A stretch of DNA of 64,000 nucleotides from Carcharhinus longimanus. Lineage: Eukaryota. The number at the start of each line of letters is the position of its first letter. Position 1 is the stretch's first letter. Where the stretch lies: assembly GCA_030264375.1 (NCBI GenBank), contig JASCQW010000137.1:33825761-33889760 (forward strand). Reading direction: 5' to 3'. A model generated the notes under the pieces. That model was given only the letters and a program-made list of their open reading frames with translations. It made no database searches and was not told the origin of the DNA. The position numbers and the translations under genes are program-made. This document shows positions 5,769-36,741 of the stretch, piece by piece.

Positions 5769-5989
5769 CTTGTTTATTGTTCACTTTCTAAAGGACAAGG
5801 ACTAAAGCTACCTTAGATCTTAGGAATATCAATCATTTCATTAAGGAGAATATATTAGTCACCTACAATGAAAGATATTGATCCAGAGACCCTCAGCCAT
5901 CAACTTGAAAAAAATCACTGTTGTGTGTGTCCTATTGCAAGACATTCAGCATTATCCTATGATTTGGACTGGAATTCTCTGGCCATTCT

Positions 5990-6247
5990 CAATTCATGGC
6001 TTGGGTCACTGTCTGTGTGGAGTCTGCACATGCTCCCCATGTCTGTATGGGTTTCCTCCCATAGTCCAAAGATGTAAGGGTTAGGTGGATTGGCTATGCT
6101 AAATTGGCCCTTACTGTCTTGGGATGCGTAGAGGGAATAGCAGGGTAAATATCTGGGATTATGGAGATAGGACCTGGGGTAGGATTGTTGTTGGTGCAGA
6201 TTCGATAGGCTGAATGGCCTCCTTTGCACTGTAGGGATTCTATGATT
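5990..6247 (+). mobile_element. HE1-type V-SINE, 5'-truncated
   Basis: Body and tail A. Confidence 0.8.
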
Positions 6248-6619
6248 CTTGCTCTGCCATCGCTGCCAGCGAGAACGGATAATTTGGTACTCAGCCAAAT
6301 CTCCGTTCACTGCAGTGGGACCGGAAAATCACAGCTGCGGGCAAAGTTGGAGAATCCTGTCCTTGAAGTTTCTCTGAGGACAGAGCTGAAATCTAGTTCC
6401 ATTGTAATGCACACAGCAACACAACAGCTATCTCTGCTTCCACCTTGTGGCAGAAGGGTTGTCCTGGATAATGACACCCATAAATTTTCAGACTGATGAA
6501 AGGGTTTGCACCTTACAGTATTAATCTCTGGGTCCTACAAGGGATCATGGCCTTAAGAAAAAAAAATTGTATCCATTGTCATCCATTACACATAGCCACA
6601 CATTTACATAATGACGGGA

Positions 6620-8238: not shown

Positions 8239-8390
8239 TCATAGGACAGTACTTTCTGACTCCCCATCAGAATCTGCTCTTATCCTACAGTCTGCCCCAG
8301 AGTTTGTGCAAATTTGGTCTGAAGATTCAGTGTAGAGTGCGTCATGAAGGTCCACTGACTGTACAAAAGAGGGATCTGGATTGTCAATAT
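8239..8390 (-). CDS. ARHGAP44: ARHGAP44 last coding exon (DIDNPDPSF...DSDGESESTVL*)
   Basis: cttgcag|AT acceptor, phase 1, TGA at 8239-8241; C-terminus parallels human DSEEESESTAL. Confidence 0.92.
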
Positions 8391-11088: not shown

Positions 11089-12286
11089 TAAGCCACAGTC
11101 CACATTTCACCATGCGATTCTAGACTTTGTACTTCCTTCCTGCCTTGAGATCCCCTTTCAAATCTGTAACTGGAGAAAATGGCTGGGCAATTTGATTTGA
11201 TGTGTATCACTCGATTTATTTTACTTATTTCAATTCTTGCACTCAAACACACACAACAAAACACAAATGCTCCTATCAGCAACAAAATAAAAGCTAAATT
11301 GATAACAGAATTGGATTTAAAAGTGTAATCTGCATTTTACATGTTAATGTGTAACCTTTATGCTGAATGACTCCTGTAGTCATTGGCACCATCTTAAGTT
11401 TGTGAACTCTTCATTATCTCTGTATCTTTAATGTACAATGCTACTGCACAGCAAAGAACAGTGAAATGAATAAGAAACTACAAACTACAGCTACAGAATG
11501 TAGTCACGGTGCCTCATAAAATGATCAGCTGTGCTGTATGGAATTCATAACTCAGTTATTAACAGACGTTTTATATTAAAAATTATTTCAACATAGATTG
11601 CGTCTGCACCAAACTTGGTGTTCGTTTTTAAAGTGTGTCTGTGTAAATGCATCTGGTGATGCCATTGCAGTTGTTGAGAGATCCTATTAAGTCTCAATGT
11701 AAGCACAGTCTCGAATATCAATGAAGGCTGAAGTTTTAACTTCTGAGCACGGGGAGCTTGCTTTTTGCCACCCACTTACTTTCCGAGTTGGTGAGCGTAC
11801 AAACAGTAAACTCTCGTCAGAGTATGCAATTCTAGCCTTAAACAGAGCCAAAATGTTTTGTCATGCACGTCCTTTTTATAACCCTGCTTTGTGTTAAGAT
11901 AATTAACCACTTTCATTTCTTCTTTTGTGTTTTGGTTCAAATAGAATGATACGCAGGGTTTAAATTTCTCTGCGGGGGAGATGCAAGCTTTGGTAAACTT
12001 GAAATCCTGTTCAGAATATGGAGAATACACAGTGTCATGGTGGCTTGCTGGATATTATCCTCACACTGGAATATCATGACATCCCTTAAAAATAATAATA
12101 ATGAAATGGAAGAGGGCAAATATTTCATACAAATAAAGCAAGTTACATTGAATTGCTGAAGCCATGGGATCAAAAAGATTCATTCAAGTACATTACATGG
12201 TTATAAGGGGCAGACAATAAGGACGTTTAAAAAAAAGAGCAAGAGTCACGAATTAAACATTTGTGAATTCTGTGCCAACAACAAGC

Positions 12287-12336
12287 CATGCAACTTTGCT
12301 TCAGTCTCATGCAAAGGCCAGTTCAGATGAGTTAGT
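12287..12336 (-). promoter_or_regulatory. Intronic splicing-regulator motifs: two TGCATG (RBFOX) and one ACTAAC (QKI-type)
   Basis: catgca at 12287-12292 and 12308-12313, gttagt at 12331-12336; about 80-125 nt downstream of the 12414 donor. Confidence 0.55.
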
Positions 12337-12413
12337 GGTGACATACAAATAGCAACTGAAGGAGTTCCAGAGTTAGCTGAAGTGCCAGAGGGGAAGTTGT
12401 TGCTCCAGCTTAC

Positions 12414-12464
12414 CCTAAATTCCCCCTCACACTTAGCCAATACAGACTCATTCTGGTCAAACAG
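12414..12464 (-). CDS. ARHGAP44: Alternative stop-containing exon (coding part 12457-12464, A-V-stop), giving C-terminus ...ESMSTAV
   Basis: U-rich tract ...catacttgcag|CT GTT TGA...TTAGG|gtaagc; 51 nt; phase 1 fits the upstream exon. Confidence 0.72.
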
Positions 12465-14616
12465 CTGCAAGTATGAAACATAGGCACCCAAAAGGGAAAA
12501 AAAAACATCATAGAAAAATTGTTCAGAGTTTTGAAAACGATAATCCGAGAAATTCCACACTTGAAAAGAATATTTATATCAATCACACAAAGTTGAAATG
12601 TAACACACACAAGAAATTAACTGTCCATTTAGGTAAGAAACATGTAAACTACAGTCAAATTAACATGGAATAATGAAATGCAATAACTGAAAAAACATAG
12701 TATACATGTAAAAGCTTGTGTGAAATGTTATCAACTAAAACAGATTCATATTTTCCAATTTATCCTTCAATTTTAAAGATTATATGCAAATGTTTCTGAT
12801 CTACTTGCTGCCCTCCACTTCCAGACTGACAGTGCTGCCTCTCATTGGGTTACCATCTAATGCATGTTGGGGTCCACTGGTGACATTGCCAAGCGGGAAC
12901 TCTAATGTAAGAAAAGGCAATTAATGCTGACAGGCTGCTCAGTTAGGGAGTTCCACTTGCATCGAGCCAGCAACGATTTAGGGGAGAAGTTTGTTCTACC
13001 TATTCAATATTATTTTTGTAATGCATTTAACACAGTGATGACATTACTGCAATTGATTAGCGATCACCTTAAAAAAAAATGGCGCCGGAGAAAGGTGACT
13101 TTTTGTGAGCTGTCCCCAGCGCACCCTCTAATTTCATTTTTTTATAATGTTCTGTGCTTCTAAATCTGGCTTTTAAGTCTTTCAAATTGCCCCTTTTGCA
13201 CCCTACCTATAGCTACACACTATATTCTGCACTCTATCCCTTTCCCCTATCTATTTTATGAACAGTACGTTTTGCCTATATAGCACACAAGGAACAATAT
13301 TTTTCACTGTATCCCAGTGCATGTGACAATAATAAATCAAATCAAAATACTCTCTGCCTCTCTCACACTTCTCTAATTCCATTGGCATTTTACTTTTGCT
13401 TATATTTCATGTCAAATGGCAACACTCTTAAAAGACTCTAAGCTGGATGCCAATGCAAATCATAATAACATAGCTTACCGTCCGCGTGAAAGCTGAGATA
13501 ATTTCAAATTTGCCTAATATTAGATTGAATTTTTGCTGTCCCCTCCCACGTTCATGGGTTAACTGTGTTCAGGATCCATCTTTTTCTATCCCATTCATCA
13601 TTTTATCCATCTTCGCTGTCTATCAAGTCAAATGATTCATTAGTTAGCCACTACTGAAGTTAAATCAGATTGGTCGTGAACATAGACTCAGTAAAGAATC
13701 AGAGGCAAGAGCCAATCATTTTTGCCTGTCTGTGGGTTATTAAAATTATAACTTATTTTGCAGCCACATTTGTGAACTGCATGGATATACTGGAAATGCC
13801 ACTGCTGTTCGACTTGCTTGGAAGGAGTAAAGGGAACAATGCAAGTGTCTCTAGAGGCTTTAAAAATGGATAACTGATAAACGCTCGACTGAACTCAACT
13901 TTTCTATTTAACAACATGATAGAAGCAGAAAACTATAGGGTGGGCACTTCTTAAAAATGGCTTCAGCTTTTTAAATTTAATAAAAATCTAGGCACCTAAA
14001 ATATAGAACATAGAACAGCACAGCACAGTATAGGCCCTTCGGCCCTCGATGTTGTGCCGAGCTATGTCCAAACCCAAGATCAAGCTATCCCACTCCCTAT
14101 CATTCTGGNNNNNNNNNNNNNNNNNNNNNNNNNNNNNNNNNNNNNNNNNNNNNNNNNNNNNNNNNNNNNNNNNNNNNNNNNNNNNNNNNNNNNNNNNNNN
14201 NNNNNNNNNNNNNNNNNNNNNNNNNNNNNNNNNNNNNNNNNNNNNNNNNNNNNNNNNNNNNNNNNNNNNNNNNNNNNTGAAACAGGTCACTGTTTATTGA
14301 TGTGAGAAGTTCTATCTACTGACTGGTATAATCTGATTTTCCAGGCAACAATTCTTCATGAATTTTTTCCTCTTTGATAATTCCATTTGGACTGATCAGT
14401 CTAAGATTAGGCAAATTGCTGCAACACAGAAATGGGAAACATAATCTGAGAATGACCGACAAGGACAAACTCAACTGTGCTCCCGAAGACAGAGAACACG
14501 TTTTGGCAGCTGCTGAGGAGATAGGCAAATTTCAGAGAACAAGCTCGGGCCACATTGACCAGTTAGAGGGCCAATTAGCACAGGCTAATCAGGGAACAAC
14601 ACTGGCCAATTACGAG

Positions 14617-18584: not shown

Positions 18585-18885
18585 GGTGCACAGTGATTAG
18601 CACTGCTGCTTCACAATTCCAGGGACCTGGGTTCGATTCCCAGCTTAGCTCACTGTCTGTGTGCAGTTCGCACATTCACCCCCTGTCTGCATGGGTTTCC
18701 TCCAGGTGCTCTCGTTTCCTCCCACAGTTTGAAAGACGTGCTGGTTAGGTGCATTGGCCATGCTAAATTCTCCCTCGGTGTACCCGAACAGGTGCTGGAG
18801 TGTGGCGACAAGGGGATTGTCACAGTAACTTCATTACAGTGTTAATGTAAACTTCCTTGTGCCACTGATAAATAAACTTAAAACT
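18585..18885 (+). mobile_element. V-SINE, tail B, nested in an older tRNA-derived SINE (about 18535-19220)
   Basis: Family match; the flanks continue a second SINE family also seen at 50117-50432. Confidence 0.8.
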
Positions 18886-19421
18886 TTTAATAATCCAGAG
18901 AAACTGAGTTCAAAGCCTATTGCAGCAATTTGAGGAACATATATTCAGGTTTTTAAAAAATGGAAAAAAAAAATCAGTTAAAAATTACTGTAATCGTCAT
19001 AACGACCCAATGAATTATCCAATGTCTTTTTGGGGATGAATGGTGCTCTCTTTGGCCACTCTGGCTATCTGCCCACAGAAGTGGCTGAGCAAGTTATACA
19101 GCTGCACCAAACCACAAGGAGTGGTCCAAAAAGGGGATCCGTCATTGCCTTCTCAGGGCAATACATGATAAGTGATAAATGCCAGATTTCCAGTGATGTC
19201 TACATTCTGGGAGTGAAATAAAGAAACTGTATGATTTCGAATCCACAGAATATTTTAAACAACTTGTAAAACAAGAATTCAAATTCATTTCACTGATCTT
19301 ATAATTCCAAACTGAATAATTTAATAATACTTAAATCCATTGATTTACAATGCAATGCAACATGTTAGCGTGACTCTGTATCCTCCTCTGTAATGATTGG
19401 TAAATTAAGGCAAGCTCCTAC

Positions 19422-19775
19422 CTGTAGACATGCTTTCTCCAGCTGAGAGGTTGTCTAAAATTGTATGGTCCAGAGGCTGTGGGCTAGACCCAGAAAGGCC
19501 TGTTGTTGGAGGCTGCGGAGGTGGGAGGGTGGGTCTTTGTCTAGGCTTGAGTGTGGGTCGAGACTTAGTTAAAGTGCTTGTTTGGGATGGGGGGGATGAC
19601 AGGGATGGTGCGGCTGGGGGTGTTTGGCTTGATGGCAAGGTGTAGGATTGAGGGTAGTTTGCAGCATATGGCGAGGGAGTGCTCGGAGGTGTGGGAGAAA
19701 GGCTTGCAGGGGAAGGCTGGCCAGTTGACTGGTCAAATGGGATTTTGGGTGCTATGGGGGCCACCTTCTTTGAAG
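19422..19775 (-). CDS. ARHGAP44: ARHGAP44 Pro-rich penultimate exon (ASKKVAPIAPK...SLSPTPPSTPSPY...KPRQRPTLPPPQPP...GESMST)
   Basis: 354 nt, cag|CT...ACA G|gtagga, phase 1-1. Confidence 0.95.
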
Positions 19776-24271: not shown

Positions 24272-24721
24272 CTAGTCAGCCTGGTTCCTTTGTCTCTGGT
24301 ACAGGCACAGCCGACCCATGGGGCAGAGGCTGACATGGAAGGGTTAAAGGGGGTGCCACAAGGGTTGTGCTTGGTTAGAAGTAAAGGGGTTTTGATGTAG
24401 ACAGGTGAGACATTAGTTTCAGGTGCATGCGTGTCAGTGAGGGGGCTTTGCTTGGGGAGGTGCAGGGAGCACGGCTTAGGGTTAGAGTTGACATCAAGCT
24501 GCTGGGGGGAAGGAGGCTGAGTGAGCAAGGTTGGGCTGTACCCGGACCACCTTTGAGGGGAGGAGGCTTGGGGTACGCCCTCAGGCCGAGCAGATGGCTG
24601 AGCCTTGTGGTACAAATGGTGGGCAGGCTGGTAGCAAGGAGGAGAAGGAGAAGGTTTGTCATTCTCTGGGGAAGGGTAAGAGTAACAGGAATCCGACCAA
24701 TTGGAAGACAACTCGTCTGTG
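24272..24721 (-). CDS. ARHGAP44: ARHGAP44 450-nt alternative cassette exon (TDELSSNWSDS...LDVNSNPKPCSLH...SPVYIKTPLLLTKH...CACTRDKGTRLT)
   Basis: tttacag|C...AG|gtaaat, phase 2-2, open for 149 codons, Pro/Ser-rich; resembles an insert I recall from long fish isoforms. Confidence 0.8.
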
Positions 24722-25224
24722 CTGTAAACACATTTAAGGAGCAACATTTGTTTGGGGAGGTACAAACAAAAAGGGAGGGGAGAAAATCAACAGAGAAAAA
24801 AAAAATACAAGGTTTAGTAACTCAGACACTGCATGAAAACACAACAGACATTTGCTGTAAAGCGACAGAGCAATGGCAATAAGGTGGGGGGGGGGTGGGG
24901 GTTTCACGGCACAACACACAGCGGACACTAAGGGCTGAGCAGTGCCATGCTGAATGTGAAATCTGTTGTAAAGCTTTGTGTTTCTATGTGTCAGAAGCTA
25001 GAACACAGAGTGAGCATGCACACACTGCACTCAACAACATGCCAGTGGCTTCTGAAACAGCTCCTTCCTAATTTTACTGCATGTCTTTTGTTATCCTGCA
25101 GGATGCTAACATTTCTGATTTGAAAAAGAAATGAGAGGAACAATTGCTAAGATAAGAGATTTACTGGAACAAATTAATTTCTGAATTTTTAGGTATGCCT
25201 TGTGACTCATGCCCTTTAATACGG

Positions 25225-35375: not shown

Positions 35376-35393
35376 CTTTGGATTTTCCTAAGG
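35376..35393 (-). CDS. ARHGAP44: ARHGAP44 18-nt microexon (G-LRKIQ-S)
   Basis: tttctgctatcgcag|C CTT AGG AAA ATC CAA AG|gtactg; restores human DGLRKIQSMGVR. Confidence 0.92.
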
Positions 35394-36690: not shown

Positions 36691-36741
36691 CGCAGTAGCC
36701 ACGTTGGACAAGATGCAGAACGTGATCTCATGTAATTTGGG
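36691..36741 (-). CDS. ARHGAP44: Candidate 51-nt in-frame cassette exon (PNYMRSRSASCPTWLLR)
   Basis: cacag|C...CG|gtaagc, phase 2-2 like its neighbours, no stop; strong donor, moderate acceptor; no homolog recalled. Confidence 0.35.

Follow-up and report, generated by a model that had tools for sequence, protein, structure and literature searches.

The 51-nt exon at positions 12414-12464 (minus strand) of a 64,000-nucleotide stretch of Carcharhinus longimanus DNA, hereafter the window, is confirmed as a real and correctly read cassette in the last intron of ARHGAP44, the gene of RICH2. We consider it probable that this exon is a RICH2 tail cassette with predicted escape from nonsense-mediated decay (NMD) and a likely role as a regulated switch of PDZ partners. 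The exon and the STAV isoform that it encodes are already known: shark gene models carry the isoform, mouse papers name it, and a cassette at the matching position is catalogued as regulated. An earlier note on this DNA, made from the sequence alone, had overrated their novelty, as the STAL/STAV pair is already in print in excerpts of PMC4788860 and PMC5067329.

Gene context and structure of the cassette exon

The gene was identified as ARHGAP44/RICH2 by its best protein matches, which carry the BAR (PF03114) and RhoGAP (PF00620) domains together with the gene name, and shark models map onto 13 exon stretches of the window, from 61308 to 8242 on the minus strand. The penultimate coding exon (19422-19775, minus strand, 354 nt) is proline-rich, ends with ...ESMST plus one G and is 99% identical to the Mustelus asterias ARHGAP44 model. 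The coding part of the last exon (8239-8390, minus strand) encodes a 50-aa acidic tail that ends ESESTVL-stop, so that skipping of the cassette (19422>8390) gives ESMST followed by 50 residues ending in ESESTVL. When the cassette is included (19422>12464 and 12414>8390) it completes an Ala codon, encodes Val and a TGA stop (12457-12459, minus strand) and then contributes 43 nt of 3'UTR; the product ends ESMST-A-V-stop, the S-T of STAV is supplied by the penultimate exon upstream of the cassette, and the coding part of the last exon becomes 3'UTR. Class I PDZ ligands have a C-terminal S/T-x-hydrophobic sequence, and both tails fit this pattern (T-A-V and T-V-L), as the earlier note had proposed.

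The acceptor of the cassette lies at the end of a U-rich tract closing with TTGCAG (12465-12520, minus strand) and reads ...TTTTTTTTTCCCTTTTGGGTGCCTATGTTTCATACTTGCAG up to the junction, and the donor reads AGG/GTAAGC (GTAAGC at 12408-12413, minus strand). Both sites are placed by sequence and by junctions at 12464 and 12414 in a sequencing run of a relative, X8, described below. The earlier note had described a 51-nt minus-strand exon with a U-rich acceptor and a GG/gtaagc donor that reads A-V-TGA after ESMST G; its borders were verified at 12464 and 12414 and the translation of the joined exons agrees. The same note had counted a deleted spacer of 50 aa, and 50 residues are indeed lost, but the STVL ligand itself is among them and the net loss is therefore 48 aa. 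The two Mustelus models are 949 aa (long form) and 901 aa (STAV form).

On recomputation the stop lies 43 nt before the last junction (46 nt counted from its T), the distance given before. Stops less than 50-55 nt upstream of the last junction escape NMD. The shark stop falls within this limit, assuming an intronless 3'UTR, and escape from NMD is predicted because of this distance, backed by the mouse inclusion level (percent spliced in, PSI) of 0.91 reported below.

Splicing of the exon in a relative

Of 11 runs guessed to be RNA, four (X1, X2, X4 and X8) were compared over region 11700-13200 only, and because of this limit junctions are visible as loose contig ends. In run X8 (organism D; RNA status guessed) one loose end matches the start of the last exon in 28 of 29 letters and the other matches the end of the penultimate exon in 26 of 27, both counted by eye. 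Both inclusion junctions thus exist in a relative, and the two junctions that had been named as a check on the exon, 19422>12464 and 12414>8390, were both found. Inclusion junctions were seen in this one of the four runs; the pieces from X2 and X4 were all unspliced, and X1, outside the exon, yielded an intronic piece and chance matches. The lack of junctions in these three runs carries no weight against splicing. The X8 exon contigs (12414-12467) show no difference over 54 nt at a depth of 42-49, against about 8 for intronic contigs, a depth that is not a PSI. The skipped form also exists, in long models from the same species as a short one (P0128 versus P0126) and in two long forms from Logan (P0062 and P0368).

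The exon sits within a conserved intronic island (12056-12727, minus strand) that is about 91% alike in organism D; the X8 contigs run on unlike the window at both ends of this interval, and run X2 aligns over 12232-12807. At a flank difference rate of about 9%, the complete identity of the 51-nt exon in X8 has a probability of about 0.008, and the 43 non-coding bases of the exon are all unchanged in organism D.

Both C-termini across jawed vertebrates

Among the matches listed, a redundant set of mostly predicted models, 54 of 522 proteins end in ESMSTAV (9/120, 17/83, 1/93, 17/77, 1/23, 9/118 and 0/8 in the successive batches). The carriers are chimaera, sharks, rays, sturgeon, bowfin, teleosts, turtles, crocodilians, lizards, bats and a seal, and Logan contigs of 3.2 and 7.7 kb encode two of the STAV proteins (P0064 and P0265). 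The long form has 44-52 aa after ESMST in 369 listed proteins, 367 of which end T-x-L (ends seen in long tails: STAL, STVL, STTL, STIL, STML, ITAL and NTLL). Among the matches listed, all 54 short forms end in Val and 367 of the 369 long forms end in Leu, the latter after a middle residue that varies, and the long tail keeps a constant length while its sequence drifts; it has 50 aa ending STVL in the shark and 46 aa in bats.

The RefSeq models XP_078081566.1 (Mustelus asterias) and XP_042198476.1 (Callorhinchus milii) end ...ESMSTAV as in the window, and between the last exon of the window and the Mustelus long form 1 of 50 residues is different. These cartilaginous-fish models, which are predicted and come without functional data, show no difference of substance from the window. 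The mammalian STAV/STAL isoforms, as far as excerpts of PMC4788860, PMC5067329 and PMC2686410 describe them, have the same BAR and RhoGAP domains and the same ESMST junction, with STAV as the short end and T-x-L as the long one. Bird, amphibian, lungfish, human and mouse STAV proteins were not found among the matches listed, a limited set that does not speak for their absence. Searching 50% representatives with a profile yielded 23 matches, one of them STAV, and none of the 10 looked up bore the name of a jawless fish or an invertebrate. Going by these protein sequences, both tails predate the split of cartilaginous and bony fishes; STAV is present in either lineage, in keeping with the suggestion of the earlier note that STAV may be ancestral to jawed vertebrates.

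Other exons, termini and repeats of the gene

Two shark models (P0127 and P0135) skip the penultimate exon, joining 23860 to 12464 (minus strand), and end ...HTLRKAV, and the window reading of this 23860>12464 junction agrees. The resulting end is not a class I ligand because it has Lys at position -2; it is possibly a third state. Three crocodilian proteins (P0341, P0342 and P0351) end ...PYGQSGAV, perhaps through splicing of a donor within the penultimate exon to this cassette. Among the matches listed, 25 of 118 ray-finned fish entries continue past the penultimate donor and share a conserved ...NGD(G/A)GRV end, possibly a third terminus specific to teleosts. A 150-codon alternative exon lies at 24274-24723 (minus strand), and the catshark model P0122 ends just after it (...DKGTRLTR). 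Another in-frame exon of 51 nt (36691-36741, minus strand, AG/GT borders) encodes a QKYMRSRSASCPTWLLR-like sequence and is found in some catshark models. The window also holds many copies, 70-86% alike, of an interspersed repeat of about 300 nt (for example 1744-2054, 5989-6249 and 18588-18889) that is presumably SINE-like.

An 18-nt exon (35376-35393, minus strand, AG/GT borders) encodes part of LRKIQS and matches the human exon at chr17:12973302-12973319 in size and position. According to excerpts of the respective papers, the human 18-nt exon is brain-high in GTEx, rises postnatally and is lowered in DM1, and is a predicted Mbnl target in mouse (PMC6952364, PMC8903011 and PMC5989265). The ARHGAP44 exon mis-spliced in DM1, in the available part of PMC8903011, is this 18-nt exon and was rejected as a counterpart of the 51-nt cassette.

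Motifs downstream of the cassette

Three motifs follow the cassette donor on the minus strand, an ACTAAC at 12331-12336 (starting at +78) and two TGCATG at 12308-12313 (+101) and 12287-12292 (+122). We take the ACTAAC to be a QKI-type motif and both TGCATG to be RBFOX-type motifs; by the position rule, UGCAUG and ACUAAC downstream of an exon favour its inclusion. The earlier note had placed the motifs 80-125 nt downstream: the two TGCATG and the one ACTAAC stand, and the span is really 78-127 nt. Of 20,000 dinucleotide shuffles of these 150 nt, 0.56% contained at least two TGCATG (0.035% when an ACTAAY was required too), as did 0.45% of 150-nt windows across the gene span, and two within 200 nt were found at none of 12 other exons tested, figures that somewhat overstate the surprise because the feature was picked before the test. 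Runs X2, X4 and X8 differ from the window at 71 places, of which 40 are listed, and not one of those 40 lies inside the exon, the ACTAAC or the TGCATG motifs.

A hairpin pairing the exon and acceptor with the downstream intron (12352-12468, minus strand, with the donor in the loop) was rejected as a mechanism and is a weak lead. Its z score is about -1.8 to -2.0 with borders chosen post hoc, folds as good arose in 10 and 6 of 200 and in 24 of 500 shuffles, grid windows at this place gave z of -0.6 and -0.9 while other windows reach -3.6, and two of three listed substitutions break pairs. The best fold of the 74 windows scanned is at 11370-11490 (minus strand; z -3.6, 25 shuffles).

The probable mouse counterpart and its developmental trend

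Datasets S5 and S9 of PMC5989265, in the parts available, hold a mouse Arhgap44 cassette of 52 nt (CA-216831-157899-160456-160508-162511), the 3'-most of three, which is typed as coding (not NMD), as known alternative splicing and as a predicted Rbfox target, but not as a Mbnl, Nova or Ptbp target, with 'under selection' set to 0. Its row carries the tag [DNT], which appears to mean 'downstream exon terminal'. From its position, size and tag we infer that it is the orthologue of the shark exon, an orthology by position only; the two are alike in being 3'-most and in size (51 versus 52 nt), and the stage data are from mouse only. In mouse cortex the PSI falls from E14.5 to 21 months through 0.91, 0.74, 0.69, 0.54, 0.41, 0.35, 0.34, 0.40 and 0.36, and in a second data set from 0.92 to 0.36 (same tables). 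This looks like an embryonic-to-mature switch and not like an exon turned on in neurons.

The earlier note had held that RBFOX promotes inclusion in neurons, a claim that this fall from 0.91 to 0.36 does not support as worded. The available mouse table does not say whether Rbfox raises or lowers inclusion, and the sole ARHGAP44 entry in the ASCOT human list is another exon, of 18 nt. In the available text of PMC5989265 the mature pattern is promoted by Rbfox in 80-96% of cases (a range over Mbnl, Rbfox and Nova), so that skipping would be expected here, opposite to the prediction from downstream sites. RBFOX would either sustain inclusion at a level that other factors reduce postnatally, or act as a repressor of the mouse exon. 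We regard as doubtful the alternative that RBFOX bound downstream activates the exon in neurons and muscle, with STAV as the neural and STVL as the non-neural form. The two downstream TGCATG, unusual by shuffling and untouched by the 40 differences listed (out of 71) for other organisms, would speak for it, as would the predicted Rbfox targeting of the mouse exon in PMC5989265, and a difference between brain and epithelium is compatible with a postnatal fall; against it, about 60-65% of transcripts in adult mouse cortex skip the exon in the same partial data and, more weakly, the cassette is absent from the available ASCOT human tissue-specific list (PMC6952364), in which the one ARHGAP44 row is the 18-nt exon. 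No Arhgap44 row was found in 11 of 13 supplementary files of PMC5693031 (the Qki5 paper) or in 3 of 4 of PMC8187152, and the available part of bioRxiv 2021.01.27.428525 names Arhgap44 once, with the exon unspecified.

It is very improbable that the cassette is a poison exon that reduces RICH2 levels through NMD, or that it reflects splicing noise. Its early stop does precede a junction, and its junctions were seen in only one of four runs, but the 43 nt between stop and junction fall short of the 50-55 nt limit, the mouse exon reaches a PSI of 0.91 and is typed 'coding' in the partial tables, and an A-V-stop invariant across jawed vertebrates would be unexpected of either.

Predicted PDZ binding of the two tails

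Val at the last position is preferred by DLG/PSD-95 PDZ domains and Leu by NHERF1. In the excerpts available, RICH2 binds the SHANK3 PDZ domain through a 'STAL/STAV motif' (PMC5067329), STAV is named as its SHANK3-binding motif by the same group (PMC4788860), the motif is given as STAL in PMC7563696, and ESTAL is linked to EBP50 in PMC2686410; the papers on the mammalian isoforms (PMC4788860, PMC5067329 and PMC2686410) list both motifs and, in those excerpts, neither compare them nor describe the exon. Our literature search, in which subscription journals were thinly covered, found no binding comparison of the two tails and no account of the conservation of the exon. The SHANK1 PDZ consensus is x-T-x-(L/F)-COOH in the available part of PMC8244488, a pattern that STVL fits and STAV misses. 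Weaker binding to SHANK-type domains would accordingly be expected of the Val end than of the Leu end, a prediction drawn from this consensus and from conservation of the last residue.

It is conceivable, if somewhat unlikely, that both ends engage the same scaffolds and that the exon instead deletes the 50-aa acidic tail (affecting reach, phosphorylation or self-contact) or changes the 3'UTR, A-V merely retaining a ligand. Such a role is consistent with reviews that treat STAL/STAV as a single SHANK3-binding motif (PMC5067329, in part), with a long tail that is constant in length (44-52 aa in 369 listed proteins) and drifting in sequence, and with the 43 unchanged non-coding exon bases in organism D; the fixed last residues among the matches listed (Val in 54/54, Leu in 367/369) and the selection of L/F at this position by SHANK1 (PMC8244488, in part) argue against it. 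This alternative and that of neural inclusion each replace one step of the reading that we prefer, a regulated switch of PDZ partners, and not the whole of it.

Proposed mechanism and significance

Inclusion swaps the 50-aa acidic tail ending ESTVL for A-V, using the upstream S-T. Under the preferred reading of a PDZ-partner switch, the message would escape NMD, as its 43-nt distance suggests. The downstream UGCAUG, perhaps with ACUAAC, may hold inclusion up, and inclusion would follow the mouse pattern, high in embryonic brain and down to roughly one third as synapses mature. With Val in place of Leu as its last residue, the BAR-RhoGAP protein would then shift from Leu-preferring PDZ domains (SHANK, NHERF1) to Val-preferring ones. 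Tentatively, this specificity switch may go back to the origin of jawed vertebrates. Immature neurons would make RICH2-STAV, poorly bound by SHANK and NHERF1 and taken by Val-preferring scaffolds, and the T-x-L form released by the postnatal fall of inclusion would dock a Rac/Cdc42 GAP on SHANK as synapses mature. Against the preferred reading, excerpts of PMC4788860 and PMC5067329 name STAV as SHANK3-binding, which speaks against a loss of SHANK; the available mouse table sets 'under selection' to 0 and holds no Rbfox direction; the STAV ends come mostly from predicted gene models; and the mouse orthology is positional.

Exons before the last one that swap the C-terminus without NMD under developmental control are known from DCLK1 alpha/beta (PMC8903011, in part) and from the CAMKK2 [DNT] row of PMC5989265 (in part), and RICH2 would behave likewise; unlike in these genes, both RICH2 outcomes are predicted class I-type PDZ ligands, the short one borrowing its S-T from upstream.

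RICH2 controls spine shape through SHANK3, and in the excerpts available STAV or STAL forms have been used for such work without distinction. The shark copy shows that both tails have been kept since the split of cartilaginous and bony fishes, their last residue being fixed as Val in the short one and Leu in the long one. If the proposed switch is true, the merged 'STAL/STAV motif' of the literature would hide two proteins with different partners.
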